Source of the DNA: an uncultured Muribaculaceae bacterium
Lineage (GTDB): Bacteria; Bacillota_I; Bacilli_A; RF39; UBA660
Length of the DNA stretch: 33,492 bases
Assembly (NCBI GenBank): GCA_964634785.1
Contig: CAZWKF010000002.1
Coordinates: 1 to 33,492, forward strand
Reading direction: 5' to 3'
Positions 11,882-33,492 of the stretch are shown one piece after another. The translations under genes and the position numbers were made by a program. Numbering within the stretch: position 1 is the stretch's first letter; every line of letters starts with the position of its first letter. Under the pieces are notes generated by a model. It did no database searches and had not been told where the DNA came from. It saw nothing but the letters and a program-made list of their open reading frames with translations.

Positions 11882-11889
11882 AACTTAGC

Positions 11890-15225: not shown

Positions 15226-15394
15226 GAAAAAAGCCACTTTTTCTAAAAAAATTCTAAAATGATGAGTAATTTCGATTTTTTTTGTGTATATATTAATTAG
15301 AAGGAGAAAATTCCTTCTAGAGAAGATTTACTGATAACTATCCTTTCTAGAAATCATGTACTACACCCTAAAATACTAGTGAATCTTCTCTTTT

Positions 15395-15838: not shown

Positions 15839-15875
15839 ATTCCCTCACTATCTTATATTTATTACTTAATACAAG

Positions 15876-15894
15876 AAAAAAGAAGCTATTCATT
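15876..15894. repeat. Direct repeat copy 1 (aaaaaagaagctattcatt) flanking the Fic cassette
   Basis: Perfect 19-mer identical to 16621-16639. Imperfect similarity extends ~12 nt further left. Confidence 0.85.
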
Positions 15895-15900
15895 CACTTC

Positions 15901-16570: not shown

Positions 16571-16620
16571 ACTCAAGTCCTCCAATAAAATCATTATACC
16601 ATTTTAATAAAACTTATACT

Positions 16621-16639
16621 AAAAAAGAAGCTATTCATT
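16621..16639. repeat. Direct repeat copy 2 flanking the Fic cassette
   Basis: Perfect 19-mer identical to 15876-15894. Each copy lies 7-8 nt downstream of a stop codon and forms the distal arm plus U-run of a weak hairpin. Confidence 0.85.
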
Positions 16640-16646
16640 AGCCTCT

Positions 16647-17348: not shown

Positions 17349-17420
17349 TTCATTCTTTCCTTTCTGTACATTATTATATCACATATTCAAAAATTGTTCA
17401 TAAAATTAGAGATTTACACT

Positions 17421-18242
17421 TTATTCTCCATTATTTTTCGTATAAACTTCACTCTCTTTAACATAGCCTTCACTTACACGATATGGGGCTTTGGCATTAG
17501 GAATCACTTCTTCAATACGATAAAGAGTATCACAAACACTTTTTCTTTCTCTTATCGCGTCACTCTCTTCATAGATAGGCCCAGAGACATACACTTCATC
17601 TCCTACGCGATATTTTAAAGGTTCATCCTCCAAATGATTAAGATGGGCATCGCGGATAATGGTAGGATAGTCATAAAAAGCAATATCCCCATCGACTCTT
17701 CCACGAATACCTGCTAATTCTTCATAAGAAGTATGTTGCCACATTCCCGCTTTTCCTTGATAAGTAAAGCGATCATTCCATTCTGCTACCCATTTATCAA
17801 AGGCATCTAGTTCACGAGAATCTAAGTTACTTTTAAAACGATCTAAACTGGCATAGATTCCTACATAATAGCCATGACGTTCCATCTCCTCACAATAATA
17901 TTTGACAATCTCAACTAAATCCTCTTTCTTTAATGCCATTTGTCTTCGCGATTCGACATCTAAAAAGACCGGATACTCTAACTTTTTATCACGAATTAAT
18001 CTTAATGTATGATCCACTTCACTTCGCGCTTCATCTAAAGTCGTCGCATAGCTGAATAAATAGACGCCAAAAGGAATACCTAACTCTTTACACATTCTAG
18101 CATTTCTTTCAAAATAAACATCGTCTTGACTTCTCACATTATTTCCAAAACCACATCTTATAATAGCAAAATCAATATAAGGTTTTACTCTCTCCCAGTC
18201 AATTCTTCCTTGGTAAGAAGAGACATCAATTCCCTTTTTCAA
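17421..18242 (-). CDS. GH25 muramidase (endolysin-like) with a C-terminal SH3-like domain and no signal peptide
   Basis: GIDVSSYQGRIDWERV, FAIIRCGFG, GIPFGVYLFSYA and FLDVE. A TTG at 18242 sits 8 nt after GGGAGG and is preferred. The longest ORF starts at the GTG at 18251. Confidence 0.82.
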   Translation of the reverse strand: MKKGIDVSSYQGRIDWERVKPYIDFAIIRCGFGNNVRSQDDVYFERNARMCKELGIPFGVYLFSYATTLDEARSEVDHTLRLIRDKKLEYPVFLDVESRRQMALKKEDLVEIVKYYCEEMERHGYYVGIYASLDRFKSNLDSRELDAFDKWVAEWNDRFTYQGKAGMWQHTSYEELAGIRGRVDGDIAFYDYPTIIRDAHLNHLEDEPLKYRVGDEVYVSGPIYEESDAIRERKSVCDTLYRIEEVIPNAKAPYRVSEGYVKESEVYTKNNGE

Positions 18243-18311
18243 TATATTCACCTCCCTACATTAATAATGTATGAAGATGAGTATTAAGCGTCTTTACACT
18301 TACCCTAAGAA

Positions 18312-19139
18312 TCAGGTAAGTTTCACAAAATGGGGATGCCTAAGACTTCCATTCTCACTTCTTTCTAAATAAGTAATGAGGCATTTTAAAGATGCTTTTG
18401 GAGCCTCTTTTACTTTCCTTAAAATTTCTTGATTTTTTCCTAGTAGCACTTTTCCACAAGAAATGATTTTGCCACTTCTATTTTCTCCAAGTAAAAGACT
18501 CACTGTTTCATTTGCATTTTCTAAACAGTCGAGAATCAAAAATACACCTTCTTGCCTATTTTTAATTTTAATCCATTTATCTGTACGTACCCCTACTTCA
18601 TAAAGACTATTTTTTTCTTTCGCAACAATTCCCTCTAAGGATTGTTTTTTCACTTGTTTAAATAAAGCCTTTCCCTTCTTTTCGATATAGGGAACAATCA
18701 TGATGCTCTCATTTTCTCTCATCTTCTCTAAGATTCTCTTTCGCCTTATTAAAGGTAAATCCACTAAAGAATGCTTCTTATAGAGAATATCAAAAGCCAT
18801 AAATAAAACGGGATTTTCATCTCTTCCTCGATTTATCTTAGAAAGTGTTTTGCTATTGACACGTTCCATGACTTTCTTAAAGTTCGGTTTCCCATCCTGT
18901 AAAGCAATAATTTCCCCATCTAGGATGACTTCCTCTTTCACCAATTCTTTAATCCTTTTTAATTCTGGAAACTTACTTGTTAAATCAACACCTTTGCGAC
19001 TCTCAATACGGATAGTTGTTGGACTGACAAATAGAATGGCTCTTATGCCATCATATTTCACTTCAAAGAGATAATCTTTATGATCAAAAGGGGAAAAAGC
19101 TTCACTTAGTAACATAGGATGAAGAATAGAATTAAACAT
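18312..19139 (-). CDS. ligD: Minimal ATP-dependent DNA ligase (LigD ligase-domain-only type)
   Basis: Motif I EVKYDGIRA. Also LDGEIIAL, MAFDILY, EGIVAKEK and KWIKIK. The ATG directly abuts the ku stop (TAGATG). Confidence 0.85.
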   Translation of the reverse strand: MFNSILHPMLLSEAFSPFDHKDYLFEVKYDGIRAILFVSPTTIRIESRKGVDLTSKFPELKRIKELVKEEVILDGEIIALQDGKPNFKKVMERVNSKTLSKINRGRDENPVLFMAFDILYKKHSLVDLPLIRRKRILEKMRENESIMIVPYIEKKGKALFKQVKKQSLEGIVAKEKNSLYEVGVRTDKWIKIKNRQEGVFLILDCLENANETVSLLLGENRSGKIISCGKVLLGKNQEILRKVKEAPKASLKCLITYLERSENGSLRHPHFVKLT

Positions 19140-19886
19140 CTAATTTGCTTCCAAACTCTTTTGCAAGGAAGTAATCAAATCTTTACCTGTTGGACTCTTC
19201 GTACTCTTTTTTTTACGAATGGATTTTCCCTCTTGTTTTTTTTGAATGGCATCTTTTATTTGATTTTGATAATCATCTTGATATTCTGATGGTGTAAAGT
19301 GACTTTCTAATTGTTCGACTAACTTTAATGCAAGATCAAATTCTTGTTTACTAAAGCTAGCAGTCGATACCGTATCGGGAATTTCAATTTCCTCTTCAAA
19401 ATACATGGTGGACATAAGAATTGTTCCTTCATAAAAACGTAAAAGGCAATAATAAAATTTAGTTCCTAATGTGGTCTTAGCAACGGCCACTTTTCCACTC
19501 TTTTTTAAGACTTCTAAAAATAAGGAATAGGCTTTTTCTTTCTTTGGTGGCGTAAGAACATAACTTTTTTCATAGTAAAAGCTCGGAATTTCTTTTTCAG
19601 GAACAAAGGCAACGACTTCAATGGTACCCTTTAAATCAATACGCATATTGGCTAGTTCCTCTTTCGTAAACGTGATAAAGTTTCCATCTTCTACTTCATA
19701 TCCTTTGACTAAATCGATTTCTTTAACTTGTTTCTTACAATGGTTACAATATTTTTGATATTGAATACGATGCCCACATTTTTTATGGAGTTGATGAAAA
19801 GTCATATCATTGTTATGAATAATGGGAGTATATAAAACAGGAATATTGACTAAACCAAAAGAAATTGCACTTTTTATATTGGCCAT
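19140..19886 (-). CDS. ku: Ku DNA-end-binding protein
   Basis: N-terminal hallmark SAISFGLVNIPV. Cys/His cluster CGH...CNHC. K-rich C-terminal tail. An ATG at 19886 after AAGGTGA is preferred to the GTG at 19895. Confidence 0.9.
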   Translation of the reverse strand: MANIKSAISFGLVNIPVLYTPIIHNNDMTFHQLHKKCGHRIQYQKYCNHCKKQVKEIDLVKGYEVEDGNFITFTKEELANMRIDLKGTIEVVAFVPEKEIPSFYYEKSYVLTPPKKEKAYSLFLEVLKKSGKVAVAKTTLGTKFYYCLLRFYEGTILMSTMYFEEEIEIPDTVSTASFSKQEFDLALKLVEQLESHFTPSEYQDDYQNQIKDAIQKKQEGKSIRKKKSTKSPTGKDLITSLQKSLEAN

Positions 19887-19897
19887 ATTGATCACCT

Positions 19898-20442: not shown

Positions 20443-20475
20443 AAAGAAGAGATCTAATCTTTCATCTCTTCTTTT
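20442..20475. terminator. Bidirectional Rho-independent terminator (tspO and the fibre operon)
   Basis: Perfect 12-bp stem, aaaagaagagat (20442-20453) / atctcttctttt (20464-20475), with a 10-nt loop and T-rich tracts on both strands. The right arm lies in the last codons of the 669-aa gene. Confidence 0.7.
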
Positions 20476-22454
20476 TGTATTTCTAATTTTGTCTCTTCCT
20501 CTTCTTGTTTAATAAGAGGTTGTTCTTCTTTTTTCTCTGGTGTTTGTTTTTCTCCCTCTTGTTCTTCTGTTTGTTCATCTGTTATCTCTTCAGGAGTATC
20601 AACGATTGGCTCTTGAGTACCAATTTCTGTATTTGGTATTTCACCATCAAATGGCTCTACCACAGGAACTTTTTCTTCTTCAAGTGGTTTTGTTTCATCA
20701 GGTTCTGCAGGTTCATCTACTACTGGTTCATCTACAACTGGAGTCTCAGGAGTTGGTGTAGTTTCTTGACTAGGATTCTCTACAGTATTCGTTACTTTTG
20801 TATGAGCAAGTGTAATCTCTACTTTTTGATTTGTTAAATCTCCCTTATCATTTGTAATCGTAACTGTTATAGCATCTTCAAAGTCCCCATTTGTAACTTT
20901 TCCAGTTCCTCCATTTGCAAGAATTGTATCTAAATCAGGAATAGTATGATATAAAGTATCATCAAGTGTAGCACTCCTTGCATTTTCTTCATCAATCTTT
21001 GCAATAAATTCTTTTATTGAAGTGATGTCGTAATAGGCACTACTGGTACGTGTTGTTAATACAATTGGTTCTGTATTTGAAAGCTTAACAGCCGATACAT
21101 AGATATTATTATTTGCGTTAAAGATATGAATTAAAACAGGTATGTTAGTTTCTGGTACTACATAAGAAATGTACTCACTAACTTCACCTTTTTTTATCTT
21201 TTGAGCAAGAGCATATAATGTAGAAACAATTTTAGTATCTTTAGAAATAGTATCTGGAATATAAGAATACTTCAAACATAGTACATCAATTATAGCATAA
21301 ATCATATCTGTATAATTTGTTTGTGAATTATATTCAATTGATTTTTCTTCTCCATTAAAGATATCTATAAATGTTAGTAAATTTTCTGATAACAAAATCT
21401 CATCATCAGTAGCACCACGAGTCACTCCTCTTATAGTTCCTGTCCCCTTAATAACTTGATAAATACCCCCATTATCATAAATATAAGTTCTAATCTTTAT
21501 AAATTCTTCACTAGCGGTTCCATCCTCATTATTTGGATAGAAGAACTTCAAATAGTCATCCAATACCTCATTTGCTCTCGATTCTGTAATATTGGCATTT
21601 GAGAAATATATCTTGTCTCTATTATTTCTAAATCTATAGGTTTTTACATATCCTATAAAGTCATCTGTTATATGGAAAACATAATATTTTTGTCCATCTA
21701 TAGTTGTATCTGACACGTCAATCCCACTTAGTGTAAGTGATGTAATAATATCAGTATTTGTACTTTGTAAATACTCAAGAATACTAGCTGACATATCCGA
21801 AATTCCATTTGCTTCTGGATATGTTACAGTAATCCAATCTTCTATTTCTTTTTTACGTGTTGCTGCATCAAGTTCAGGTATATCAGGTAAGTAATAATAT
21901 TCTGATTTATCACCATCAACATAACCGTGTGGTTTTCTTACAGTCGTAATACGATCCCCTTTAAAAAATAAGAATTTAAAGTCATCCATTGTTTCATAGA
22001 TTTTCGCATAAGTTGTAATTTTTGTTGTATTTGCATCAACAACTGTTCCATTTAAATCAGCTACTTGACAAGTATAGGTAACCCCTACTTGGTCAGCAGA
22101 CTTATCATGATATTCTAACGTTACTTTATTCTTATTAATAGTAGAAGTAGCCCTACTACTTATTCCATTTTTATCAATCAAACAACCACTTGGTACTTCT
22201 ACTTCATACTTATCATTATCAACATAAGTATTACGATCAAATGTTAATTTATATTGTATCTCTGTCCAACTTCCTCTTAAAAGAGTCATGTTAGCACTTC
22301 CTGATGGATTGACAAATGATATATCAGATTCTAAGGCAACATAATTATCCTTAACGTACTTGGAAGTCGTTTTAGAATAATTCGCAAATGTAGGAATACT
22401 AAAAACTAAAAGAGTTGTCATTAACACTTTATTGATAAGTTTTAAATTACTCAT
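20454..22454 (-). CDS. Large secreted protein of unknown function with an acidic/Pro-rich C-terminal tail
   Basis: Signal peptide ...LLVFSIPTFANYSK. ~560-aa globular region, then an E/P/T-rich tail. An ATG at 22454 sits 8 nt after AGGAAG. An alternative GTG lies at 22463. Confidence 0.6.
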   Translation of the reverse strand: MSNLKLINKVLMTTLLVFSIPTFANYSKTTSKYVKDNYVALESDISFVNPSGSANMTLLRGSWTEIQYKLTFDRNTYVDNDKYEVEVPSGCLIDKNGISSRATSTINKNKVTLEYHDKSADQVGVTYTCQVADLNGTVVDANTTKITTYAKIYETMDDFKFLFFKGDRITTVRKPHGYVDGDKSEYYYLPDIPELDAATRKKEIEDWITVTYPEANGISDMSASILEYLQSTNTDIITSLTLSGIDVSDTTIDGQKYYVFHITDDFIGYVKTYRFRNNRDKIYFSNANITESRANEVLDDYLKFFYPNNEDGTASEEFIKIRTYIYDNGGIYQVIKGTGTIRGVTRGATDDEILLSENLLTFIDIFNGEEKSIEYNSQTNYTDMIYAIIDVLCLKYSYIPDTISKDTKIVSTLYALAQKIKKGEVSEYISYVVPETNIPVLIHIFNANNNIYVSAVKLSNTEPIVLTTRTSSAYYDITSIKEFIAKIDEENARSATLDDTLYHTIPDLDTILANGGTGKVTNGDFEDAITVTITNDKGDLTNQKVEITLAHTKVTNTVENPSQETTPTPETPVVDEPVVDEPAEPDETKPLEEEKVPVVEPFDGEIPNTEIGTQEPIVDTPEEITDEQTEEQEGEKQTPEKKEEQPLIKQEEEETKLEIQKEEMKD

Positions 22455-22477
22455 AAACTTCACTTCCTTTCCTTTTA

Positions 22478-23128
22478 TTAATCTTTTTGAATAGCAGAGA
22501 ATCCAACTTGAATGGCTTTCGATATATTAGGATTTACTTGACTAAATACATAATCTCCATCACTATTGGTTTGTCCCCCACCAGTATATTGAATATCAAC
22601 TTCATACGTATATGTTATTGGTCTACTTGTATCACTTATTTTAACATCGTGATCTACTACAATACTGTTATATTTTGCTGTTGATTGATTATTTGTTCCC
22701 GTATTCTCATGATAACTTGTATCACTTGTTAAGACGCCATCTTTTGAATAAATTGTTCGACTTCCACTTCCTGCTGTCTCCACCACTCTTATAATTTCAA
22801 AGTTGCTATCCACACCTATTCTTGTAAAGAGATCAGCCGATACTTCTAACTCGGTTGTATCTAATGAAAACGTATAAGTAATCACTTCTCTTGGTCTTAA
22901 TCCATTATAATTTAAATTACATGTTTCATTATTTTCGTTACAGACCATACCATCTTTTAAAATTTTAACATTGAATTTGGCAGGACTTGCTTTTGTCGTT
23001 CCCTGTAGTTTTGACATATATCGTGAATAGGTTATTACTGTTGTAGCTAAGCCAATAACCGCGATATACATAAAAACCCATTTGATTAACTTTTGTCTAA
23101 ATAACTTACTATGTAATAACCCTTTCAT
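22478..23128 (-). CDS. Small secreted TasA/CalY-like protein (candidate minor fibre subunit)
   Basis: Hydrophobic N-terminus ending TTVITYSRYMSK, matching the motif in the 26720-27331 protein. Beta-rich. Ends ...VGFSAIQKD. Immediately downstream of a SipW-like gene. Confidence 0.5.
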   Translation of the reverse strand: MKGLLHSKLFRQKLIKWVFMYIAVIGLATTVITYSRYMSKLQGTTKASPAKFNVKILKDGMVCNENNETCNLNYNGLRPREVITYTFSLDTTELEVSADLFTRIGVDSNFEIIRVVETAGSGSRTIYSKDGVLTSDTSYHENTGTNNQSTAKYNSIVVDHDVKISDTSRPITYTYEVDIQYTGGGQTNSDGDYVFSQVNPNISKAIQVGFSAIQKD

Positions 23129-23137
23129 AATATTTTC

Positions 23138-23692
23138 CTACTTTCTTTTCTTTTTCTTATACTCTAAGAATTCTTTTTCTTCTTCACTTAAATCTTTTGG
23201 TACTAAGTCTTTATCTGTACTTCCTAAGAAGCAAATGACGATACCAATGATTAAGATAAGAATCATGACGATGGGATTTTGAATAGACTTTAGAAGAATT
23301 CCTAATCCCTTAAATCGTCTTACATATTTTCCAACAATGACTTTTGTTTCCATCTCTTCATCAGGAGAATTATTGGCATCTCCTTGTGTAATCATTTTAG
23401 AACCATTAATCTCGATAATACGGTGTGTGACAAAAGAACCATTGACGTCTCGAAATGTCACAATATCATTTTCTCTAAATCTTTTCTCATTCGTATCAAT
23501 GATGATGATATCCCCTATATCAAGTGTTGGTTCCATCGACCCTGAGATGACTTCCAACATGGCATAACCGCCAACCGTTGATAAGTCTTGTTTTAACACT
23601 TTAATACTTACAAACTGATAGACATTAAAAGCTACTAATAAAACTAAGAGTACATAGACAAATTTCACTAGTATTTTCTTTGCTAACTTCAT
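23138..23692 (-). CDS. sipW: ER/archaeal-type signal peptidase I (SipW-like), copy B
   Basis: VISGSMEPTL (Ser), VTHRII (His) and TQGDANNSPD. Extra C-terminal TM helix and a charged tail containing EFLEYK. Confidence 0.85.
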   Translation of the reverse strand: MKLAKKILVKFVYVLLVLLVAFNVYQFVSIKVLKQDLSTVGGYAMLEVISGSMEPTLDIGDIIIIDTNEKRFRENDIVTFRDVNGSFVTHRIIEINGSKMITQGDANNSPDEEMETKVIVGKYVRRFKGLGILLKSIQNPIVMILILIIGIVICFLGSTDKDLVPKDLSEEEKEFLEYKKKKRK

Positions 23693-23709
23693 AAGTACAC
23701 CCCTTTATT

Positions 23710-26616
23710 CTAATTTTTCATGCAGGCTTTGTTTTCCTTTGTATAAAGGATACTTACCCTTAAGAAATACTCATTATTATCCTCATCTACATTACTTCCA
23801 ATTAAGGTATCTACAGCGTCATTATCAAACCATTTCCACAAAACCGTAAGTTGAGTAGACTCCCCATTTTGTAGACGAATCTCATCACTACCTAATTCAA
23901 TAGTATTTTCTGTATAGAAACGCTTCAATTTTGAAGTGTAGTTAATTGGTGTAAACTTAGTATTCGCATCTTGATTTAAGATTGTATATCCAGAACGTGT
24001 TTGTAAGAAGAACTTATCATTAGCTTCTCTTGTCGTCTGTCTTATCATATAACCAAGATTAACACATTCTTTTTCGCGAAGACACATCGTATCTTCTTCT
24101 AACTTAATACCCGTAATGGTTAGAACTTGTCCCGTATCATTTGTAAAGTTCATCTCTTGAGCTCCACTTAATCCAGGATAGATAAGATTTGATATATTTT
24201 GTTCTGATTGAGATTTTGCATTTTTAAATAAATCTAAGTTATCAAATACAACAAGTCCCTCTTCTTTTACAATTTCTAACTGACTATCATCAACTGTCTC
24301 ATCAAAGATTGCATAGAGAGTTAAATTGCTATTTATCGTAATCTTATCATCTATTGCATAAGCTGTTCCCTTGCCATCTGCTTGTGTATTCCATGTTGCC
24401 TTATAATAGAGACATTGATCAGGTTTTGCTGGTTTATAAGCTTTATAAAGACTTAAGTCTAATTCATCTCCCGGTTTCATAACGAATTCTTTATTTGCTT
24501 GTAAAGAATTGATAAACCCGCCATTTACTTTGGCATTTAAGATAACATTATATTCTGCTTTAATCGTTGCTGTAAAGGAAACTTCTTTCACTGTATCTCC
24601 AAAAGCAGATCCTTTAATCTTAATATCAGCACTTCCTGTATTTTGTAAAGCATTTAACGTAAGTACATAAGATTCACTGCCATCACTATTGATCTTTTTA
24701 GATACAGCTACACTTACAACACTTGGATTTGAACTTGTAATAAGGATTTCCCCTTGTGTATCAACAACACCCGTATTCTTAGGTGTTAACTTGATTCCAC
24801 CAGGAATGTTTTCGGTATTAAAATCACTACCTAAGATATTTGTATTAAAGATGATATTTCTTGACTTATTATCATCTGTATAAGTAATATCATAATTCTT
24901 ACAAGCATCACTTTCACAAGTAGTAAGATAATAAGGTACAGTTTCTACAGTAACTTTTACTTCTGCCTTATGTCCATTATAATCAATGGTAATTGTATGC
25001 GTAGACCCAATATCATCTTTAGTAGGTGTTACTTTAATTAAATCTTGTTCTACTTTTACTTCACCCTTAAAAGTTCCCTTATCAGGTGTTACATTATAAT
25101 TTCCGCTTAATTCTTCCCACTTTCCAGAATCAATCGTTTTTTCATAAATCTTATAGCCAAGATCTTTTGTTCCATTTTCAACTTGAATCGTAATAGTTGA
25201 TTGGTTAAATTCGATTTTTCTTTCTGGTCTATAGATATTTACTGTAACATCTGCTTTTGTTCCATCTGCAGTTGTTACTGTTAAAGTGAATGTATTTTTT
25301 CCTTCATTTAATGTAAGATTATTTAATACTGGTGATGATGAAGTATTATCAGATGGAGTCGCTTTTAATTCACCAATAGAAGTTTTATCATAATCAACTT
25401 TTAATGTATAAGTTCCATCACTTTCTAATGTTAAATCTTGTCCATCAGCTGTTACTTTATCAATAGATAAGTCACTATTTAAATCTTTCTTAATGACAAC
25501 CGTATATGTCTTCTCTGATCCATCTTCAGCAATAACCTTAATTTGAGTTTCTGTTGTATTTGAAGTAAGGGTAATATTCTTTGTATATTCTATTGTAGCT
25601 TTGCTATCTTCTGGTGTAGCTGTAAGAGTAATTTCATTTACATTCTTACCTACTGTAATTTCATATCTCGTATCACTTACTTTTTTCACCGTTCCTGTTG
25701 ATGATGTAAGTGAACCAAGATTCTTATTACTTGATTTATCTGTTGGTTTATTTGGTTCTTCTGATTCACCTGGTTTATCAGAATTGCCTGGTTTATTGGA
25801 TTCATTTGGTTTATCTGAATTACTAGGTTTATTTGGCTTATTTGGTTTTTTCTTCTTTGTTTTCTTCGTTGTCTTTGTACTTTGATTTGTACTCTTCTCT
25901 TGAACATTCAATGTATATTCCGTTTGATAACTTCTTCCATTAGCACTAACTTCAAGAGTAATAGTAACTTTACCTGCTTTTTTAGCAGTAACGGTCAAAA
26001 TTCCATTTTTCGCCTCAGCTGTAGCGATGCTTTCATCACTTACAGTAACTTTAACTTCATCTTTAAGTCCTTTTAAATCATAAGGAATTCTTTTTGTTTT
26101 TCCATAACTTAAAATGATATTTCCATTTGTACTATCTAAAGTAATTCCATTCGTTCCTTCTTTTATCTTAAGTCTTGCTTCAGCTCTATAGAGAATATCA
26201 TTTTTCTCTGTTTCAGCAAATATCTTAACAGTACCCTCTTTTTTAGGATAGATAACAACATAATCTTTTTCAGCTACACAAGTAGCTATATTAGCGTCAC
26301 TCGTTGTACAATGAACATCATCACCCTTAATATTCTTAATTGTATAAGCTAACTTATATCCTGTATCATCTAATGTAATTTCGCTTGATTGCGATACAAA
26401 TACTAAATTTGTATTGGTACTAACATTTTTATCTTTTGAATCTTTATTAAAGATATAGTTAATTGATTCAAATAGATTTCCAATACGTCCCCAAAATGAG
26501 GAAGTACAACTCGTAATCAATAATAAAATAATAATGATAATAATGATAATACATATCGTGAGTTTTGTTTTCGTATGATTATTTTCTTCTTCATTCTTTT
26601 GAACATCTTTTTTCAT
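23710..26616 (-). CDS. Giant multi-domain surface protein (Big_2-like, cadherin-like beta-sandwich, Listeria-Bacteroides-type repeat, C-terminal TasA-like domain)
   Basis: N-terminal TM with a lipobox-like LITSC. Big_2-like ESIATAEAKNGILTVTAKKAGKVTITLEV. Cadherin-like LGSLTSSTGTV...YEITVGKNVNEITLTATPEDSKATIEY. ATWNTQADGKGTAY...LTLYAIF. AGGAGGTG RBS. Confidence 0.7.
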   Translation of the reverse strand: MKKDVQKNEEENNHTKTKLTICIIIIIIIILLLITSCTSSFWGRIGNLFESINYIFNKDSKDKNVSTNTNLVFVSQSSEITLDDTGYKLAYTIKNIKGDDVHCTTSDANIATCVAEKDYVVIYPKKEGTVKIFAETEKNDILYRAEARLKIKEGTNGITLDSTNGNIILSYGKTKRIPYDLKGLKDEVKVTVSDESIATAEAKNGILTVTAKKAGKVTITLEVSANGRSYQTEYTLNVQEKSTNQSTKTTKKTKKKKPNKPNKPSNSDKPNESNKPGNSDKPGESEEPNKPTDKSSNKNLGSLTSSTGTVKKVSDTRYEITVGKNVNEITLTATPEDSKATIEYTKNITLTSNTTETQIKVIAEDGSEKTYTVVIKKDLNSDLSIDKVTADGQDLTLESDGTYTLKVDYDKTSIGELKATPSDNTSSSPVLNNLTLNEGKNTFTLTVTTADGTKADVTVNIYRPERKIEFNQSTITIQVENGTKDLGYKIYEKTIDSGKWEELSGNYNVTPDKGTFKGEVKVEQDLIKVTPTKDDIGSTHTITIDYNGHKAEVKVTVETVPYYLTTCESDACKNYDITYTDDNKSRNIIFNTNILGSDFNTENIPGGIKLTPKNTGVVDTQGEILITSSNPSVVSVAVSKKINSDGSESYVLTLNALQNTGSADIKIKGSAFGDTVKEVSFTATIKAEYNVILNAKVNGGFINSLQANKEFVMKPGDELDLSLYKAYKPAKPDQCLYYKATWNTQADGKGTAYAIDDKITINSNLTLYAIFDETVDDSQLEIVKEEGLVVFDNLDLFKNAKSQSEQNISNLIYPGLSGAQEMNFTNDTGQVLTITGIKLEEDTMCLREKECVNLGYMIRQTTREANDKFFLQTRSGYTILNQDANTKFTPINYTSKLKRFYTENTIELGSDEIRLQNGESTQLTVLWKWFDNDAVDTLIGSNVDEDNNEYFLRVSILYTKENKACMKN
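25723..25896 (-). repeat. In-frame degenerate tandem repeat encoding a K/P/N/S linker
   Basis: Encodes KKKKPNKPNKPSNSDKPNESNKPGNSDKPGESEEPNKP. Iterated ggtttatt/ggtttatc units are visible in the DNA. Confidence 0.7.
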
Positions 26617-26651
26617 ACGATTTTACACCTCCTCTTAACAACTTTTAAATC

Positions 26652-26704
26652 CCAACAAAATCTATGAATTTCATAGACTTTGTTGGAAGTTAAAATTAAC
26701 TTCC
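26652..26704 (-). terminator. Two tandem stem-loops (partial terminator/attenuator) between the small-subunit gene and the 968-aa gene
   Basis: ggaagttaa-aa-ttaacttcc (26685-26704, perfect). ccaacaaaatctatgaa / ttcatagactttgttgg (26652-26686, one G-U pair). Only a short U-tract follows on the minus strand, then the AGGAGGTG RBS. Confidence 0.55.
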
Positions 26705-26719
26705 ATAACTAAATTGAGA

Positions 26720-27331
26720 TTAGTCAACTTGGTTAACGATAATCTTAGCATCAACAGATACTGTTTTAGCATCAGTAGCAGTTGAAGCAAATGTAGTATC
26801 ATCTACACCATCAGTTACAAATGGCCATTCCCAATCAACTTTGATATCAGCTTCACCGTTACCATTCATATCTAAGTTTTCAGTTGAAGCAACAGTAAAT
26901 TTACCATCAGTAAGTGTAGCAGCAACATCATTTACCTTAAAATTAATTGGTAATCCATTTACCGTAGGAGTAAATTCAGCAACATAAGAAGCTTTAACTT
27001 CAGAATTGTTTTTTAATTTAATAGTAAATGTTCCTTTAGTACCAGGTGCGATAACAGTATTTTTTGTACCATTGTTTGCTACCTCTGTATCCATGCTTCC
27101 ATCAGTTTCTGTAATAGTTTCAAATAAATCAAATTTGAAATCATTTGCAGCAGTTACATAGTTCCCAGCAGCATCACCAATTTCGAATGCCCATTTTGCT
27201 ATTGTAGCAGTACTAGTTTTACCTGTAAATGTACTTGTATATTTAGCGTAAGTTCCACTTACTGAGTAAGCAGTAACAACAACTAACATAACTAATACAG
27301 CTAAGATTGACATCTTTTTATTTTTCATCAT
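26720..27331 (-). CDS. Small secreted TasA/CalY/BsaA-like protein (candidate major fibre subunit)
   Basis: Signal ...VVTAYSVSGTYAKYTSTF, resembling SipW-cognate signals. IAPGTKGTFTIKLKNNS and VDWEWPF...VSVDAKIIVNQ beta-sandwich-like signatures. An ATG at 27331 follows GGAGGTG; the longest ORF starts at 27346. Confidence 0.6.
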   Translation of the reverse strand: MMKNKKMSILAVLVMLVVVTAYSVSGTYAKYTSTFTGKTSTATIAKWAFEIGDAAGNYVTAANDFKFDLFETITETDGSMDTEVANNGTKNTVIAPGTKGTFTIKLKNNSEVKASYVAEFTPTVNGLPINFKVNDVAATLTDGKFTVASTENLDMNGNGEADIKVDWEWPFVTDGVDDTTFASTATDAKTVSVDAKIIVNQVD

Positions 27332-27454
27332 TTTCACCTCCCTCATTGTAAACTTCTTTCATATAGTGCATAAGTCGACACTATGCGTTCGGAAGCATAT
27401 GCTTTTACTTCCTATATATGTAAACAATCTTGCGATTGGTTACACCAATGTTGG

Positions 27455-28138
27455 TTAGTTTTTCTTCTTTGTATTCTTTGCTTTCTTTTCTTTTGATTCC
27501 TTATCCTCAGTTGTTTTTTCTTCTTTTATTTCATTCTTTTGCTTTTCTTCTAATTCTTTTTGTCTTTTATACTCTAAGAATTCAAGCTTTTCTTGATCGA
27601 TTTGTTTTTTATTCGAAACCATGAAAGCTGCGGCGAATACAACTGTAATACCTAAGATGACAATAATTATGGTTGTTGGATTGGCAAGTCCATTAAGAAT
27701 ATTACCAATACTAGGAATACGTGTGACATAAATTCCTTCAACATCACTTAGTTCAACTAAGTTTTGGTCTTGACTTGTATTGTTATCCCCCTTTGTGATG
27801 AAATAATCAACACCTTCACGATTCACGATTTCTATAATACGGTGAGTCGTTACAGTTCCTTCATTATCACGGAAGGCAATAACATCGTCTACCTTTAAAG
27901 TGGTTGGATCGACTATTTTTGTAATAATTAAGTCTCCCACTTTGATTTCTGTTTCCATTGAACCAGAGAGTACGATAAATGGTTTATAGCCAAACACACT
28001 AGGGACTTTGTCTTTATCGGTATTGGCTTGAATCATAATGGAAACGTTTACGGTAAGTATTCCAACAAGAACTGTACAGACAACGACCATTAACCAATTC
28101 GTCCATTTTTTGTACCACTTCTTATTTCCTTTCTTCAT
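27455..28138 (-). CDS. sipW: ER/archaeal-type signal peptidase I (SipW-like), copy A
   Basis: VLSGSMETEI, VTTHRII and TKGDNNTSQD. Extra C-terminal TM helix and a long K/E tail containing EFLEYK. An ATG at 28138 sits 10 nt after GGAG and is preferred to 28147. Confidence 0.85.
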   Translation of the reverse strand: MKKGNKKWYKKWTNWLMVVVCTVLVGILTVNVSIMIQANTDKDKVPSVFGYKPFIVLSGSMETEIKVGDLIITKIVDPTTLKVDDVIAFRDNEGTVTTHRIIEIVNREGVDYFITKGDNNTSQDQNLVELSDVEGIYVTRIPSIGNILNGLANPTTIIIVILGITVVFAAAFMVSNKKQIDQEKLEFLEYKRQKELEEKQKNEIKEEKTTEDKESKEKKAKNTKKKN

Positions 28139-28170
28139 ATCACACATTCTCCTTTTTATTTGTTTTTTTC

Positions 28171-31146
28171 TTAAGAAAGTTGTAACACTTTGTTTGTATT
28201 TGTATCTTTATTTTGACTATCTAAGAATTTTAAGAGTTCCGCATATTCAGCTTCCATCGTTTTCATTTCTTGCGCACGACTCTGTTGATAACTTTGTAAT
28301 TTGCCAATATCATCATTTCTCTCTTCAATAACTGGAGCTGACTCTTCAACTTTCTCTTCAGTTTGCGTTTGAACAACTTCTACAACAACCTCAGTGACTT
28401 TTACTTCTGTAACTTGAGAGACAACTGGTGTTTCTACTGGTACAGGTTCAATATCGTCCTTCACTTCTCCATTACCTAATAATTTTAAGAGCTCTGCATA
28501 TTCGGCTTCCATCGCTTTCATTTCTTGTTCACGATTTTGTTGATAAGCGGCTTGTAATTTACCCATCTCATCAAGTTCTTCTTCCTCTTCTTCGACAACT
28601 TCTTCTACTGCCGATTCTTCAGTGTTCCCTTTTTCTTCTTCTATAACTACAGGTGTTTCTCCTACAGGATCAGTATCTTGTTTTAACTTTTTATCCTTAT
28701 CAGGATCATCACCCATTGGCCATTCTTCATCATGATCATCTGGAAGAATCGCATCTTCTTTTTTATATATGATATCTTGTTTCTCTAATATAACATCAGT
28801 TGTTTCTTCCATTATAATATTTGCTGTTGCAATTTTTGCTTGAGGATTATTGGCTGCAATAAAAGCATCAATATCGGTTTCTGGTAATCCATGTTCTCTT
28901 TCAAATTCATGAATAGCATCTATTTCATCAATACCAAATTCAACAACTTTAGGGCAACCATTTCCATTATTACAACTATATTGTAAACCTAATAACATAT
29001 CTAATATAATCACTGGTTCTGGAGTACTATAAGTATGTTCTTTTGGAACTCTACTAATTTCTACACCATCAATTGATCTAACTTCTTCATAACAATAAGT
29101 TACAAAACGCGGATCATCTTTTCCGATTAAAGGATAAGTTACATCTTCTTCTGGTGTTTCTGTAATAACATGTTCATAATGACAGTTTTCACAAATCTCT
29201 ACACCATCAATTATATCTCCATATTGATGACTTTCTCTATTTGTGTTTGGACATCCTGTAACTAAACATACTTGTTCACAGTAGTTATCATCTACTTTAA
29301 TCCATTCACCAAACTGATCAATATGTGGATAAATATGAACATGGCCACATATTGGATCTACTTCATATTCATATCCATTTTGAACATATGGATCATCATA
29401 TGTACAAGCTTCTTTTGAGCCTTCTTTTACAACAGTAACGACTTCCCCACAAGTACAAGTATATGTCCCTATTTGATAATGTTCTGCACGATCATTTGGC
29501 GTTGATCCTGGAACAGTAACAGTTGTATAGACTAAATCTTCTGGTGCTACATCATGAACATGAACTCTTTCAACTTCTTGTCCACAATCTGGGCAAATAC
29601 CATAGTCTTTACCATCTTTATAAGTCCAGCTTGTTGGTTCACAGTTTACTGGTTTATTTGAAATTACTTTTACATGCTTACAATTTGAACAAACTTGTGT
29701 TATCTTCATTTGATGAGTTTTTCCATCCCCATTTGAAGTAATGGTTACATTTTCTTCTCCATATTCATGTGGTCTCTCACCAAGAACCGTTTGACAATCT
29801 GGACAAATAAGTTGTTCTTTTTCATCATCTTTAGAAATCCATTCAGGTTTCTTATGTTTTTCTCTTGTTTCTTGATATCCACAATCTTTACAATCACGTT
29901 CTTCTGTACAAGCATTTGGATTTTCTGCCCAATTGCCATAACGACAATCTTCACTATCGGTAACTTCTGATTCAAAGATATGATGGCATCCAGAACACTC
30001 TTCTTGTTTATATTTTTTATGTGTTCCATCATCATTACTATGAAAGAGATTCTTAATAAAGCTTAATTTACCATGTTTTCTTGTTTCTTTATAGTTACAA
30101 TTTGGATCTTCACATGTTCTTTCTTCTAAATCATTATTTAAGAACTTCCAATCTCCAAGTTTATGTTCATGGTCTATTTCTTGTGTTATTGTATGTCCAC
30201 AATTCTTACATTTCTTTTGTTTATGAGTATCAGAGATAATTTCCCATTCTCCATATTTATGATCTTGATATTGGATAAGTCCACAACTATCACAAATACC
30301 ATTTTCTTGAGTATCACTGATGGAAACCCATCTTATTGCTGGATGTTCTCTCTTTTCTACTTTACCACTCTTAGAAACTCTTTGTTCATACTTATCATCA
30401 AGTGCTTCCCATCGCCCCCATTCTTCTTTTTCTTCTACTGGTTTTTCTGGTTGAGTAGAAGCATTCGAGTTTGAATTTGATCCATGATTATGACTGTGTT
30501 CTTCGCTTTTCGTTTCTTCTTCTATCTTATCAGTATCTTCATTTGTAATTTCATCTTCATCAATATAAAGACTTCTTAAGATACTTAATAATAATGTATT
30601 TTGAGGAATTGTTCCCTTATATGGAACTAAACTTCCATACATTTCTGGATTTTCATTTGCAAAATGTTCAGCTAATTTCTTACGATAAGCTAAATCATTA
30701 GGATATCCAGCTGTTTCTAAAGCTTTGTTAATTGAATTTCCATCATAATCCTTAATATTTAAAACAGGAATAACTAATGCAGTATCTTCGATAATTGATT
30801 CTTCGTGTTTTGAATTGGAAATACGATTTGGTTTAGGATCATTTTCTGATACTGTAGTTTCTGGATTTTCTTCTGAATCATTCTTTCCTTTTCCAAATTT
30901 TTCTGCTGCAAGTTCAGTTGGATCTACGGTATCAATAATTTCAATTTCTGATGGATTCTTTTCTGGAAGTTCTTCAGGGACTTCGCCAATATGTTCTCCA
31001 TTCTCCCCAGATAAATCATGATTCTTATCATAAACATATCCACATGATGCTCCGGCAGTTGCCAATGCAAGCACTGCAGCTAAGCCACGGATAAGTTTTC
31101 TTTTTCCACTATTATTAGTAGTTTTTGTACTGTTTTCTGTTTCCAT
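28171..31146 (-). CDS. Giant secreted Cys/His-repeat protein with a duplicated C-terminal helical motif
   Basis: Signal/lipobox-like ...LALATAGASCG. About 10 units of [YF]-G-x-W ... C-x2-C ... H between aa ~240-735. E-rich C-terminus with two copies of GKLQ..QEMK.MEAEYAELLK. Confidence 0.6.
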   Translation of the reverse strand: METENSTKTTNNSGKRKLIRGLAAVLALATAGASCGYVYDKNHDLSGENGEHIGEVPEELPEKNPSEIEIIDTVDPTELAAEKFGKGKNDSEENPETTVSENDPKPNRISNSKHEESIIEDTALVIPVLNIKDYDGNSINKALETAGYPNDLAYRKKLAEHFANENPEMYGSLVPYKGTIPQNTLLLSILRSLYIDEDEITNEDTDKIEEETKSEEHSHNHGSNSNSNASTQPEKPVEEKEEWGRWEALDDKYEQRVSKSGKVEKREHPAIRWVSISDTQENGICDSCGLIQYQDHKYGEWEIISDTHKQKKCKNCGHTITQEIDHEHKLGDWKFLNNDLEERTCEDPNCNYKETRKHGKLSFIKNLFHSNDDGTHKKYKQEECSGCHHIFESEVTDSEDCRYGNWAENPNACTEERDCKDCGYQETREKHKKPEWISKDDEKEQLICPDCQTVLGERPHEYGEENVTITSNGDGKTHQMKITQVCSNCKHVKVISNKPVNCEPTSWTYKDGKDYGICPDCGQEVERVHVHDVAPEDLVYTTVTVPGSTPNDRAEHYQIGTYTCTCGEVVTVVKEGSKEACTYDDPYVQNGYEYEVDPICGHVHIYPHIDQFGEWIKVDDNYCEQVCLVTGCPNTNRESHQYGDIIDGVEICENCHYEHVITETPEEDVTYPLIGKDDPRFVTYCYEEVRSIDGVEISRVPKEHTYSTPEPVIILDMLLGLQYSCNNGNGCPKVVEFGIDEIDAIHEFEREHGLPETDIDAFIAANNPQAKIATANIIMEETTDVILEKQDIIYKKEDAILPDDHDEEWPMGDDPDKDKKLKQDTDPVGETPVVIEEEKGNTEESAVEEVVEEEEEELDEMGKLQAAYQQNREQEMKAMEAEYAELLKLLGNGEVKDDIEPVPVETPVVSQVTEVKVTEVVVEVVQTQTEEKVEESAPVIEERNDDIGKLQSYQQSRAQEMKTMEAEYAELLKFLDSQNKDTNTNKVLQLS
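28226..28305 (-). repeat. Coding direct repeat, copy 2 (see 28481-28564)
   Basis: ~85% identical to 28481-28564 by eye, with a 3-nt indel. Encodes GKLQSYQQSRAQEMKTMEAEYAELLKFL. Confidence 0.8.
28481..28564 (-). repeat. Coding direct repeat, copy 1
   Basis: Encodes GKLQAAYQQNREQEMKAMEAEYAELLKLL. Paired with 28226-28305. Confidence 0.8.
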
Positions 31147-31178
31147 AATATCCCCTCTAAAATAAAATTTTGTTTGCT

Positions 31179-31207
31179 ATTATACATACATTTATTCATT
31201 TTGTCAA
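31179..31207 (-). promoter_or_regulatory. Consensus sigma-A promoter of the fibre/adhesin operon
   Basis: Minus strand reads TTGACA (31207-31202), a 17-nt spacer, then TATAAT (31184-31179), ~30 nt upstream of the ATG at 31146. Confidence 0.7.
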
Positions 31208-31255: not shown

Positions 31256-32470
31256 TTATCTCTTGCAATTCATTTCGTAAGTTTTTCTAAGACAAATTTC
31301 TGAACCAGTATCTCCACTTCGATATTTTTCTAATACCTCTTTATTTGTAATTTTATAATGTCTTATAAACTCTTTTTCTCCTAAGAATAAAGCTCGACTT
31401 GAACAGCTACCGCAAAAATAATAGAATCTCGCTAAAGTTAGTTCTGCACTTTGCATTAAATTTTTAGGATTATTATAAATATAATCTAAACTGTTAGTAA
31501 AGAAAGCTACATATAGTTTCTCATTAATGCTATTTTCACTCATTGTAAAGTAAGCAGGAAAGCGAAGTAATATATCCAGCGCTTTTTTCTCATCATAGTA
31601 ATTTACTAGAATATCTTTTTTCTTTTTTAAAGTTTTATAGTCTATAGCTATAACAACTAGAGAATTTTCCATAGCCGATCTCATCCCATCTTCATCAAAC
31701 CCTAGTTTTTTAAAATTTTTTGAGAATTCATAAAGAACTTGAGGTGAGCAATTTAAACAGTTAGGATTTGCAAAAAGGCTCTTCTTAAATTTGTCTTTAT
31801 CAACTTTTAAAGCATTTGCAATATCAAAAAGGGCAAAAAGGCCATCAAAATTAAAATTTGCTCTTTTTTTCATTTTTATTCTGAGAATGTCTACTAATGG
31901 AATATGATAAGGTGCTATTACCTCTTCAACACTTTGATAGAAATGCTCATCTAATTCCAATATTTTACAGTTATACCCAGCACAAGTAGCAATCTCTTTT
32001 TTACTTAATCCAATTCCCATTAAATAGGAAATAATCTGTTGTACATGATGCGGTTCATCAAAAATAACAGCGACATTTTCATAAAACATTCTTTCAATTC
32101 GTTCTTCTGCTAAGCCTAGTTCTCTTAGTAAGTCTCTGATTCTTTCCATATTTACGCGATAGACCTTATCACTTTCTACTACTCTATCTTTAATGCTCGC
32201 TAACACACTCGGATAACGTTTATAGTAAGTGCTTTGCTTTTTATAAGTCATTGCCTTGGGATAATTAGCAGCTAAATCTCTTATTTGTTCTTTCGTATAG
32301 TTTAAATCTAATAAGTATTGTTCAAAAGTAGGAAAGTTCTCTTTCATTGTATCTAGATCATTTTTTATCGTATTCCATTTTTTAAGAATCATAATAATCT
32401 GCTCGTCACTAAATCCTAATGGCCTAAATAATTGAAAAGCTTTCATTGTCTCAACATTACTTATAAACAT
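31256..32470 (-). CDS. Helical-repeat protein, mTERF-like (paralog 1)
   Basis: Iterated L..LG[FL]s..ei units (PLGFSDEQII, ELGLAEERIE, GIGLSKKEIA, KLGFDEDGMR) and LLRFPAYFTMSENSINEKL. An ATG at 32470 is preferred to the TTG at 32473. Confidence 0.45.
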   Translation of the reverse strand: MFISNVETMKAFQLFRPLGFSDEQIIMILKKWNTIKNDLDTMKENFPTFEQYLLDLNYTKEQIRDLAANYPKAMTYKKQSTYYKRYPSVLASIKDRVVESDKVYRVNMERIRDLLRELGLAEERIERMFYENVAVIFDEPHHVQQIISYLMGIGLSKKEIATCAGYNCKILELDEHFYQSVEEVIAPYHIPLVDILRIKMKKRANFNFDGLFALFDIANALKVDKDKFKKSLFANPNCLNCSPQVLYEFSKNFKKLGFDEDGMRSAMENSLVVIAIDYKTLKKKKDILVNYYDEKKALDILLRFPAYFTMSENSINEKLYVAFFTNSLDYIYNNPKNLMQSAELTLARFYYFCGSCSSRALFLGEKEFIRHYKITNKEVLEKYRSGDTGSEICLRKTYEMNCKR

Positions 32471-32476
32471 CAAAAA

Positions 32477-32535: not shown

Positions 32536-33492
32536 TTACTTTATAGATTTCACTTTACCTAATCTTTTATGATAGAACTCAATAATCTCTTGATTACTCG
32601 CCCCATACAGTTTTTCAAATTGGTTCTCACCCATAAAAAGAATACGTGGAAAGCAACCATTAAAATAAGCATATCTTGCCAAAGTAAGTTCAGCACTTTG
32701 AATTAAATTTTTAGGATTCTCACAAATAAATTCTAAACTTTCCGTTTTTTTACAAGCCTCTAATTTTGATCGAATGTTTTCTTCACTCATTGTAAAATAA
32801 GCTGGGAATCTTACCATAATCTGCATGGCTTTATCTTCTTCTACATATTCCATCAATATTGATTTTTTAGCTTTCATGACTTCTTCATCTGTAATCATGA
32901 GTTTAATTGACTTTTCAAGCATTTCACGTATTTCTTCATCAGAAAATCCTATCTTATGACATCTTTCTATACATCCATAGCTCACTTCTTCCCCACTACT
33001 AATGACTTCTACATATTGTAAAAATTGTTTTCTAAATTTTGCTTTATTTACATTTAACTTATTTGCTACTTGAAAGACAGCTAAAATATTTTTTAAATTT
33101 AAAGCCCTTTTCTTTCGCATTTGACTTCTTAAAATATCGATAAGCGGAATATGATAAGGCGCAATTATTTCAATGATGTCACGATAATAAAGTTCATCAT
33201 AAACAAGTATTTTATAATTCAAGGTAGCCATCTTTCCTATTTCTTCTTTTGTTAGTCCCAATTGAATAAGGTAATCAATAATTGCTTTCAAATGCTCTGG
33301 ATCATCAAATATAAAAGATATATTCTTATCAAAGAAATACTCCATTTTCTTTTCAGGAATATCTAAATCGACTAATATCTTTCTTATTTCATCCATATTC
33401 ACTCTATATTCATTTACATTATCAACAACAGCATCTCTTATATTATTTAATACTTCTATTCGTTTTTGGCAATAATTTTTAACATCTTTTAC
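32536..33492 (-). CDS. Helical-repeat protein, mTERF-like (paralog 2), 5'-truncated by the window edge
   Basis: The frame stays open from 33402 to 33492 (VKDVKNYCQKRIEVLNNIRDAVVDNVNEYRVN-MDEIRK). This extension aligns with IKDRVVESDKVYRVNMERIRD of paralog 1. Shares IAPYHIPL[IV]DILR, RFPAYFTMSE and NPKNL[MI]QSAELTLAR. Confidence 0.5.
   Translation of the reverse strand, partial: VKDVKNYCQKRIEVLNNIRDAVVDNVNEYRVNMDEIRKILVDLDIPEKKMEYFFDKNISFIFDDPEHLKAIIDYLIQLGLTKEEIGKMATLNYKILVYDELYYRDIIEIIAPYHIPLIDILRSQMRKKRALNLKNILAVFQVANKLNVNKAKFRKQFLQYVEVISSGEEVSYGCIERCHKIGFSDEEIREMLEKSIKLMITDEEVMKAKKSILMEYVEEDKAMQIMVRFPAYFTMSEENIRSKLEACKKTESLEFICENPKNLIQSAELTLARYAYFNGCFPRILFMGENQFEKLYGASNQEIIEFYHKRLGKVKSIK

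Follow-up and report, generated by a model that had tools for sequence, protein, structure and literature searches.

A seven-gene operon with two signal peptidases

The stretch of DNA studied here (the window) is 33,492 bp long and makes up an entire NCBI contig, CAZWKF010000002.1, deposited as part of an uncultured Muribaculaceae genome; its G+C content is ca. 32%, and almost all of its genes lie on the minus strand. Our subject is a group of seven co-directional open reading frames (ORFs) located on that strand between positions 20454 and 31146, separated by intergenic gaps of 9-123 nt and listed in Table 1 together with their control signals. They code for two signal peptidases of the SipW type, two small secreted proteins (small-A and small-B) and three large proteins (p991, p968 and p669). 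An initial annotation, made from the sequence alone, had described a tightly spaced operon behind a perfect promoter and had proposed that it encodes a mating fibre or adhesin apparatus for a type IV secretion system (T4SS) encoded nearby. The seven genes and the promoter are as it described. As argued below, we read them as a chromosomal SipW-dependent surface-structure operon that is unrelated to the T4SS and belongs to uncultured small-genome gut Bacilli, a reading to which we assign a probability of about 0.6; the most likely product is a membrane-anchored fibre.

Downstream of the promoter, a GAGGGGA ribosome-binding site precedes the ATG at position 31146. At the 3′ end of the operon, where a bidirectional terminator had been proposed, a consensus terminator scan found none. 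The scan missed a hairpin at this position because its loop is 10 nt long. The hairpin folds with a ΔG of -14.4 kcal/mol (z -4.0; 0 of 200 shuffled sequences folded equally well) and is flanked by runs of A and U; its role as a terminator is plausible, but the region is AT-rich.

Table 1. Coordinates of the operon genes and associated features in the 33,492-bp window
Feature	Position	Strand	Remarks
Sigma-70-type promoter, TTGACA-17-TATAAT	31179-31207	minus	12/12 match, 33 nt 5′ of the first ATG
p991, 991 aa	28171-31146	minus	large predicted lipoprotein
SipW-A, 230 aa	27455-28147	minus	archaeal/ER-type (S26B) signal peptidase I
small-A, 208 aa	26720-27346	minus	secreted beta-sandwich, candidate major fibre subunit; 203 aa if the start is at 27331
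p968, 968 aa	23710-26616	minus	large predicted membrane-anchored surface protein
p968 C-terminal domain (~aa 783-968)	23713-24270	minus	homologue of the small-A core, candidate acceptor-only anchor
SipW-B, 184 aa	23138-23692	minus	second archaeal/ER-type signal peptidase I
small-B, 216 aa	22478-23128	minus	second class of small secreted beta-sandwich subunit
p669, 669 aa	20454-22463	minus	secreted, candidate donor-only tip or nucleator
13-bp hairpin over the p669 stop codon	20441-20476	minus	faces a convergent TspO gene; plausible bidirectional terminator

Both peptidases scored above the curated cut-off (51.85 bits) of TIGR02228, the model of the archaeal/endoplasmic reticulum (ER)-type signal peptidase I (90.0 bits for SipW-A and 80.4 bits for SipW-B), and both stayed below the cut-off of 190 bits of NF046067, the equivalog model of Bacillus SipW (102.8 and 76.7 bits). 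Thus, the earlier label of SipW-like peptidases is borne out for the type of enzyme and not for orthology with SipW. The two enzymes are 32% identical to each other, and SipW-B also matches Peptidase_S24 (29.1 bits, cut-off 23.3). A serine motif, SGSME, and a histidine motif, THRI, can be read in both translations and by analogy would provide the catalytic residues, i.e., a Ser/His rather than a Ser/Lys pair. SipW-A has a C-terminal transmembrane helix plus a charged tail, and in both peptidases such a helix is followed by a common charged tail, EFLEYK(K/R). In B. subtilis, the C-terminal region of SipW has a separate function.

The alternating arrangement of the initial annotation is supported: each peptidase gene is located directly 5′ of a gene for a small secreted beta-sandwich protein, and the two pairs alternate with very large surface proteins devoid of LPXTG signals. 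A regular-expression search for LPXTG-like motifs found none in the seven operon proteins, and no sortase family was present among the Pfam matches of the window; sortase-dependent pili were rejected on this basis.

The N-termini of the two giant proteins are lipobox-like, with a hydrophobic segment leading into the pattern [LVI][ASTVI][GAS]C, by which p968 and p991 are predicted to be lipoproteins. In the p968 family, 60 of 66 homologues have a cysteine after the hydrophobic stretch (as ITSC, SCSC or LTSC) within a strongly conserved N-terminus, ...IIIILLLIT(SC)SC-TS-x-FFGKIG, which in the window takes the form ...LLLITSC-TS. In the p991 family, a cysteine after the N-terminal hydrophobic segment is found in 19 of 33 aligned homologues (LTGC, IGSC, VSGC), and p991 of the window has a non-canonical GASC at the lipobox position. 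Lipid anchoring of these proteins would account for the missing LPXTG signals. The initial annotation had called p968 a Big_2/cadherin-like protein; its Pfam matches are all sub-threshold, to Cadherin-like (22.4 bits, threshold 24.2) and Flg_new, and Big_2 is not among them. p991, which has no Pfam or NCBIfam match, is Cys/His-rich, as had been seen before (32 Cys, 35 His and eight CxxC motifs between residues 285 and 655), and none of the other six genes varies as much. The central CxxC motifs look zinc-ribbon-like, which is odd in an extracytoplasmic lipoprotein, and the C-terminus contains two copies of a coiled-coil-like repeat, GKLQ..YQQ.R.QEMK.MEAEYAELLK.L, at residues ~830-870 and 930-970.

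Homology and cleavage-type motif of the secreted proteins

BLASTP finds no similarity between small-A and small-B, and their homology emerges at the profile level only. When the small-A family alignment (A1, 65 members) was compared with the small-B family alignment (A2, 48 members), hhalign returned a probability of 95.4% (E 1.7e-8), and hidden Markov models (HMMs) of A1 and A2 match each other's members reciprocally over nearly the full length. In both families, the signal helix ends in T-Y-[A/S]-[K/R]-[Y/F] and is followed by a (D)xARVAK[W/F] segment, and the last strand ends in [A/T]-Q. In the window, the helix of small-A ends in SGTYA↓KYTS and that of small-B in ITYS↓RYMS (arrows here and below mark the predicted cleavage site). 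The invariant residues of A1 are T27, Y28, A29, Y31, A45, W47, A95, P96, G97, G100, W167, W169 and Q201.

The core of small-A recurs at the C-terminus of p968. Local hhalign comparison of 73 p968 C-termini with A1 gave a probability of 94.8% (E 5e-8); the global alignment (E 4e-7) matches the FDLF, I-x-PG-x-x-G-x-F...N, WKW and DTxIG motifs, and the A1 HMM gives marginal matches at the C-termini of five large homologues. This domain, the last ~185 residues of the protein, begins directly after the Flg_new-type repeat and is devoid of the N-terminal TYAKYTS...ARVAKW segment of small-A. p669 has the N-terminal motif on a different body: beyond the signal helix with the motif FANYS KTTS↓KY come a large domain of unrelated sequence and an acidic tail rich in Pro, Glu and Thr, and hhalign of p669 with A1 aligns the motif only (E 7.8e-5), the rest of the protein being unrelated. 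Among 73 homologues of p669, T/S occupies position -3 in 72, S/A position -1 in 70, K/R position +1 in 62 and Y/F position +2 in 72.

A motif of the form [TS]-x-[AS]↓[KR]-[YF] after the signal helix is thus common to small-A, small-B and p669. The strict five-residue version is present in 82 of 82 small-B and 73 of 78 small-A proteins, in none of the 612 other ORFs of the loci, and it is absent from p968, p991 and the peptidases. The residue at position -1 splits with the gene that lies upstream: it is Ala in 73 of 73 small-A proteins, which stand behind SipW-A, and Ser in all 82 small-B proteins and in 60 of 73 p669 homologues, which stand behind SipW-B.

Among 48 divergent homologues of small-B, the cytoplasmic N-region, MKGLLHSKxFKKNLxKW..., hardly varies, and in the AlphaFold2 (AF2) model it forms part of one long confident helix.

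The initial annotation had taken the small proteins for TasA-like, and we compared them with the TasA/camelysin group at several levels. Neither protein has a Pfam or NCBIfam match, and their relatives in A1 and A2 likewise have none, even at E<=1. PF12389 (Peptidase_M73) gave no match at E<=0.01 for small-A or small-B of the window, nor at E<=1 for any of the 65 + 48 family members (0/113), and an NCBIfam scan found neither TIGR04088 (the SipW-cognate signal) nor a TasA model at E<=1 in any A1 member. In place of a TIGR04088-class signal, the proteins have the distinct but related motif TY[AS][KR][YF]. A 44-sequence alignment of TasA/CalY homologues (A3), all of which carry PF12389, was matched by A1 with a probability of 1.4% (E 0.038) over the signal peptide only and by A2 with a probability of 0.1%. 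A greedy A1/A3 alignment is collinear (GTYA with GTWA, TQ with TQ) but lacks statistical support. Local, global and greedy hhalign runs, with one TasA sequence (the same as 8aur and 5of1 at all residues from 28 to 261) or with the TasA-family alignment as target, gave nothing significant, and phmmer and profile searches of PDB sequences with small-A and small-B returned chance matches only.

Evidence of a TasA-like fold from structure prediction is weak. The AF2 models of the two proteins are monomers. That of small-A (pLDDT 72) is a beta-sandwich in which residues 25-42, just past the predicted cleavage site, are disordered; the TasA fibre structure 8aur_A is its top match and the sole PDB match at E<=1e-3 (E 6.8e-4, template modelling (TM) score 0.31, root-mean-square deviation 8.4). 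The small-B model (pLDDT 75.5) resembles generic beta-sandwich, carbohydrate-binding module (CBM) and adhesin folds, none significantly, and TasA is outside its top 50. It follows that small-A and small-B resemble TasA/BsaA-type subunits in context and layout, while membership in that family is not demonstrated.

These results leave some room for the main rival view, in which the products are surface or secreted proteins (adhesins, coat or binding proteins) that are matured by two dedicated peptidases and form no donor-strand fibre. The fold searches, which give mostly generic beta-sandwich, CBM and adhesin domains, the lack of significant homology to any proven fibre subunit and the adhesin-type repeats of the large proteins (Cadherin-like and Flg_new, both weak) are all in its favour. 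It leaves unexplained, however, why a small-A-like domain in a large lipoprotein should lack exactly the N-terminal segment, and why the N-terminal motif should occur alone on an unrelated large protein, p669. In addition, small-A is present in two copies at about six species-level loci and diverges fast, as major pilins do, and its N-terminus is disordered beyond the predicted cut, a feature shared with BsaA and TasA. We regard this view as unlikely, although it retains a real share of our expectation.

The small-A family is very large and without annotation. Among 1.84 billion representatives of 50%-identity clusters, the A1 profile retrieved 8367 clusters at E<=1e-3, of which 4667 also pass E<=1e-10, and the sole source name found for them was 'hypothetical protein [Bacilli bacterium]'.

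Distribution of the operon and the neighbouring T4SS

When one genome per GTDB species was searched with the small-B profile, 93 relatives came up, and we retrieved 80 loci. All of them come from gut metagenome-assembled genomes (MAGs; mouse, rabbit and ruminant), several on contigs of 200 kb to 1.26 Mb. The depositors' labels are Bacilli, Tenericutes, Mollicutes, 'Mycoplasma sp.' and, in a few cases, Muribaculaceae; the contigs of the latter MAGs (loci L007, L014, L018, L043, L048, L069, L072 and L079, labelled 'uncultured Muribaculaceae') are probably mis-binned. Gene order was compared by tblastn, phmmer and clustering of all ORFs in the loci. Nearly everywhere, a p991-like gene (at the first position in 50 loci) is followed by a peptidase, small-A, the big p968-like protein (76-79 loci), a second peptidase, small-B (82 loci) and a p669-like gene (77 loci). 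This order, which recurs in ~80 species-level genomes of uncultured gut Bacilli with small genomes, is far from what chance would produce.

Sixty-two loci contain both peptidases, and in every one of them the first resembles SipW-A of the window more closely and the second SipW-B. This constant order implies that the peptidases were duplicated before the lineage radiated; a layout with two of them is ancient and fixed, and the idea of a duplicated, plasmid-borne novelty is not supported. The same data bear on the possibility that the two enzymes are simply the general signal peptidases of the lineage, encoded next to surface genes incidentally. ER-type enzymes are the general signal peptidases of archaea, and the genomes concerned appear small, one locus being on a contig of 1.26 Mb. 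Against this stand the fixed positions of both genes in 62/62 loci, the confinement of the cleavage-type motif to operon proteins (0/612 neighbouring ORFs) and an Ala/Ser split that follows gene order. We consider a general housekeeping role of the two peptidases very improbable.

Comparison with the closest relative, locus L005, reveals unequal divergence: identity to the window is 59% for small-A, 50% for p991, 65% for p669 and 72% for small-B, compared with 85-88% for the peptidases and 87-92% for the flanks. Judged by these values, the faster divergence of the exposed parts has the signature of diversifying pressure on a surface structure. Small-A is mostly single-copy, with two copies in about six species-level loci; rapid divergence and a two-copy small-A are typical of exposed major subunits. 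Tandem duplications of small-A or variants of the big protein were seen at L011, L015, L052, L063, L069 and L059 (at L059, the large protein is split), and in some lineages small-A homologues reach 350-420 aa.

Downstream of the operon, the window contains TspO (on the plus strand), Ku, an ATP-dependent ligase, a GH25 muramidase, several ORFs with no assignment, a thymidylate-kinase-like protein, a Fic fragment, the T4SS set and a ZIP transporter. The T4SS set consists of a VirD4-type coupling protein (T4CP; PF02534, T4SS-DNA_transf, E 5e-53), a VirB4-like ATPase (AAA_10, P-loop_TraG), M23 and NlpC/P60 hydrolases and a VirB6-like protein with a weak match to TrbL (21.9 bits, threshold 25.9). 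These genes are on the same strand as the operon, the nearest being the VirB6-like gene 6.4 kb downstream. The initial annotation was therefore right about co-orientation and distance; its description of the T4SS as complete is not matched by the recognised families, since no relaxase, integrase or replication family of Pfam was found in window ORFs of >=80 aa, although part of the element may be cut off at the contig ends. A circularity test gave no overlap between the two termini of the contig, and no att-like direct repeats were found around the T4SS block.

Operon and T4SS were seen side by side only here and in one close relative. A phmmer search with the window proteins found homologues of T4CP, VirB4 and M23 in none of 84 operon loci, and homologues of VirB6, Ku, ligase, GH25, TspO and mTERF only in L001/L002/L005, which represent one close relative (50-92% protein identity). 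There, the operon also adjoins the same Ku-ligase-GH25-T4SS block. In ~75 other species-level genomes, no homologue of VirB4, T4CP, VirB6, Ku or ligase is present within 10 kb of the operon, which lies among housekeeping genes: nusA-infB-truB (9 loci), a MurC-type ligase, IleRS and other tRNA synthetases, MutL, NrdD, EzrA, RelA/SpoT, UvrD, sigma factors, transporters and PrsW. Searches of plasmids and viral contigs also gave no match to the operon. The small-A family had no tblastn match in 72,556 plasmids, of which 2683 are matched by VirB4 of the window; by megablast, neither the operon nor the remainder of the window matched a PLSDB plasmid. A1 had no relative in a pattern scan of 2.9 million viral contigs, and a phage origin was rejected for this reason. 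Metagenome scans for the T4SS in other contexts, with the VirB6-like protein alone and with a two-sequence alignment, came back empty.

How do these findings affect the proposal of a SipW-processed mating fibre or adhesin, encoded by the operon, that works for the adjacent T4SS and is carried with it on one conjugative element? In its support, the VirB6/VirB4/T4CP cluster is close by on the same strand, the adjacency is kept in the closest relative, L005, and matrix fibres are known to promote transfer of ICEBs1 indirectly (PMC6158512). Opposed to it are the T4SS-free surroundings in ~75 other species, the lack of small-A relatives among plasmids and viral contigs, the lack of a recognised relaxase or integrase in the window and of a circular overlap of the contig, and the spacing of the ZIP gene. 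The homologue of the ZIP transporter (54% identity; window 185-946) lies 21 kb downstream of the operon here and, in L052 (9633-10289), just 3.7 kb downstream of small-B. This difference hints that the 19-kb T4SS-Ku-ligase block (1034-19895) is an insertion, though the hint is weak and comes from a single locus. A fibre or adhesin apparatus is still a reasonable reading of the operon, whereas the mating role is not supported and is largely refuted by the distribution: most homologous operons stand in surroundings free of T4SS genes, an outcome that the initial annotation itself had named as refuting. The mating role keeps a slim chance because adjacency is conserved in one close relative and matrix fibres aid conjugation indirectly. 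In our reading, the T4SS is a separate conjugative module that stands beside the operon in this genus. A literature search gave no report of this operon or of a link between SipW and T4SSs; it returned known work on TasA, BsaA and AbpA and the indirect effect of biofilm on ICEBs1 only.

Several further features of the surroundings were noted. Ku and the ATP-dependent DNA ligase, a pair of the non-homologous end joining type, and the GH25 muramidase are located between the operon and the T4SS (window 17421-19895, minus strand) and may form one inserted block together with the T4SS. A spot of variable cargo separates the GH25/h233 genes from the VirB6-like gene: in the window (14216-16594), it holds the thymidylate-kinase-like gene, a 147-aa ORF, the 95-aa Fic fragment and a 128-aa ORF, and in L005 (16524-17574) one 223-aa ORF. 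Directly upstream of the operon are two genes for paralogous mTERF proteins (PF02536, E 2e-15 and 3e-12; 31256-32473 and 32536-33402, minus strand), one of which is conserved in the close relative (L001, 5007-6203). mTERF domains are uncommon in bacteria.

A proposed anchored fibre

Under the reading that we favour, a chromosomal operon for a membrane-anchored surface structure, events could proceed as follows. The single σ70-type promoter would drive all seven genes. p991 and p968 would be exported and tethered to the membrane through their lipobox-type N-termini. Small-A, small-B and p669 would be exported with their signal helices and cut by the ER-type peptidases at [TS]-x-[AS]↓[KR]-[YF], with SipW-A acting on the Ala(-1) class (small-A) and SipW-B on the Ser(-1) class (small-B and p669). 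Cleavage would free a flexible N-terminal segment, and, as with TasA, BsaA and AbpA, the following subunit would take up this segment in its beta-sandwich as a donor strand; donor-strand assembly has been described for SipW-processed TasA, TapA and BsaA and for archaeal AbpA (PMC9674648, PMC10151520, PMC11580942, PMC9245690). Small-A, small-B or both would form the shaft. The C-terminal domain of p968, which has no N-terminal segment, could hold the fibre at the membrane as its acceptor-only base, and p669, which combines this segment with an unrelated body, could be a donor-only tip or nucleator similar to TapA or AbpB. Built largely on analogy, the full anchor/shaft/tip model is tentative, and we consider it somewhat less likely than not. 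No more probable, and in our opinion doubtful, is the broader claim of a new, lineage-universal type of Gram-positive fibre with two dedicated peptidases, one for each class of pilin-like subunit, a donor-strand shaft seated on an acceptor-only lipoprotein and a donor-only tip, an arrangement that would follow chaperone-usher-like logic with no sortase, usher or type IV pilus machinery.

Several points weigh against the reading of the operon as encoding a T4SS-independent fibre. At the level of sequence, no tie between small-A or small-B and TasA/camelysin was detected. The predicted fold of small-A matches TasA with a TM score of just 0.31, and that of small-B does not recover TasA. A lipobox is recognisable in just 19 of the 33 aligned p991 homologues. 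The invariance of the N-region of small-B is unusual for a signal peptide that is discarded and suggests specific recognition or retention of the helix. Finally, the operon may have been co-opted locally, in this genus, beside the T4SS.

The closest known counterparts are chromosomal loci with an ER-type peptidase gene beside genes for small secreted beta-sandwich subunits, tapA-sipW-tasA of B. subtilis and sipW-calY1-bc1280-calY2 of B. cereus. As in small-A and small-B, the signal helix of TasA/CalY ends in G-T-aromatic-A (GGGTWA↓AF there, SGTYA↓KY here), and the last strand carries an invariant Gln (EATQ there, VTQ or SATQ here). TapA, like p669 in the proposed model, is an accessory protein able to donate an N-terminal strand. 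These loci differ from the present operon by having one peptidase instead of two and by PF12389 homology, which is undetected here, while the present operon has two giant lipoprotein-like proteins, one of them with a subunit-like acceptor domain, and its hosts are uncultured small-genome gut Bacilli.

The sipW-bsaA-bsaB-bsaC locus of C. perfringens is similar in its layout, where genes for two remote TasA-like subunits and one for a large secreted protein come after sipW (PMC11580942). BsaA has a disordered N-terminal loop, proposed to be the donor strand, and is proposed to assemble at the membrane surface before release. The locus differs by its single peptidase and by BsaC, a vWA protein. 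BsaA is also locked by an N-E-K isopeptide triad, and its secretion is aided by type IV pilus proteins (PMC11580942), genes for which are not in this window. Archaeal AbpA is a very divergent TasA-like jelly-roll with a donor strand, whose kinship with TasA is visible only by the most sensitive comparisons, and its larger, TapA-like partner AbpB has been proposed to be an initiator and adhesin (PMC9245690). Here, the differences are the archaeal host, an operon without a dedicated peptidase and the lack of a described lipoprotein anchor.

The resemblance to chaperone-usher pili is one of logic: a tip or terminator subunit with a donor-only or acceptor-only element sets the polarity of the fibre, and adhesins of the FimH type are receptor domains fused to a pilin domain. 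Chaperone, usher and outer membrane are not involved here, which makes this an analogy and not homology. The operon is also reminiscent of PrgB-type conjugation adhesins, since large surface proteins are encoded near a T4SS in the window, but its proteins have neither LPXTG signals nor PrgB-like domains, and the T4SS link is absent in other species.

It thus follows that the operon belongs to a known kind, the SipW-associated fibre and matrix systems, and is not categorically new. What sets it apart are the two fixed peptidase-substrate modules, the lipoprotein-type giants, one of them with a subunit-like acceptor domain, and the very large unannotated subunit family, which is thereby defined where neither Pfam nor NCBIfam has a model. 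With its two paralogues and two cleavage-site classes, the operon is also a natural experiment on the specificity of ER-type signal peptidases. The results take away the tempting but unsupported claim of a polymerised mating fibre in Gram-positive T4SSs. If the proposed model is true, a lipoprotein base with a built-in acceptor domain would be a third way of tethering fibres in monoderms, next to sortase-linked pili and TapA-anchored TasA, and the operon would open a first functional way into the surface biology of these abundant gut Bacilli, which are uncultured.

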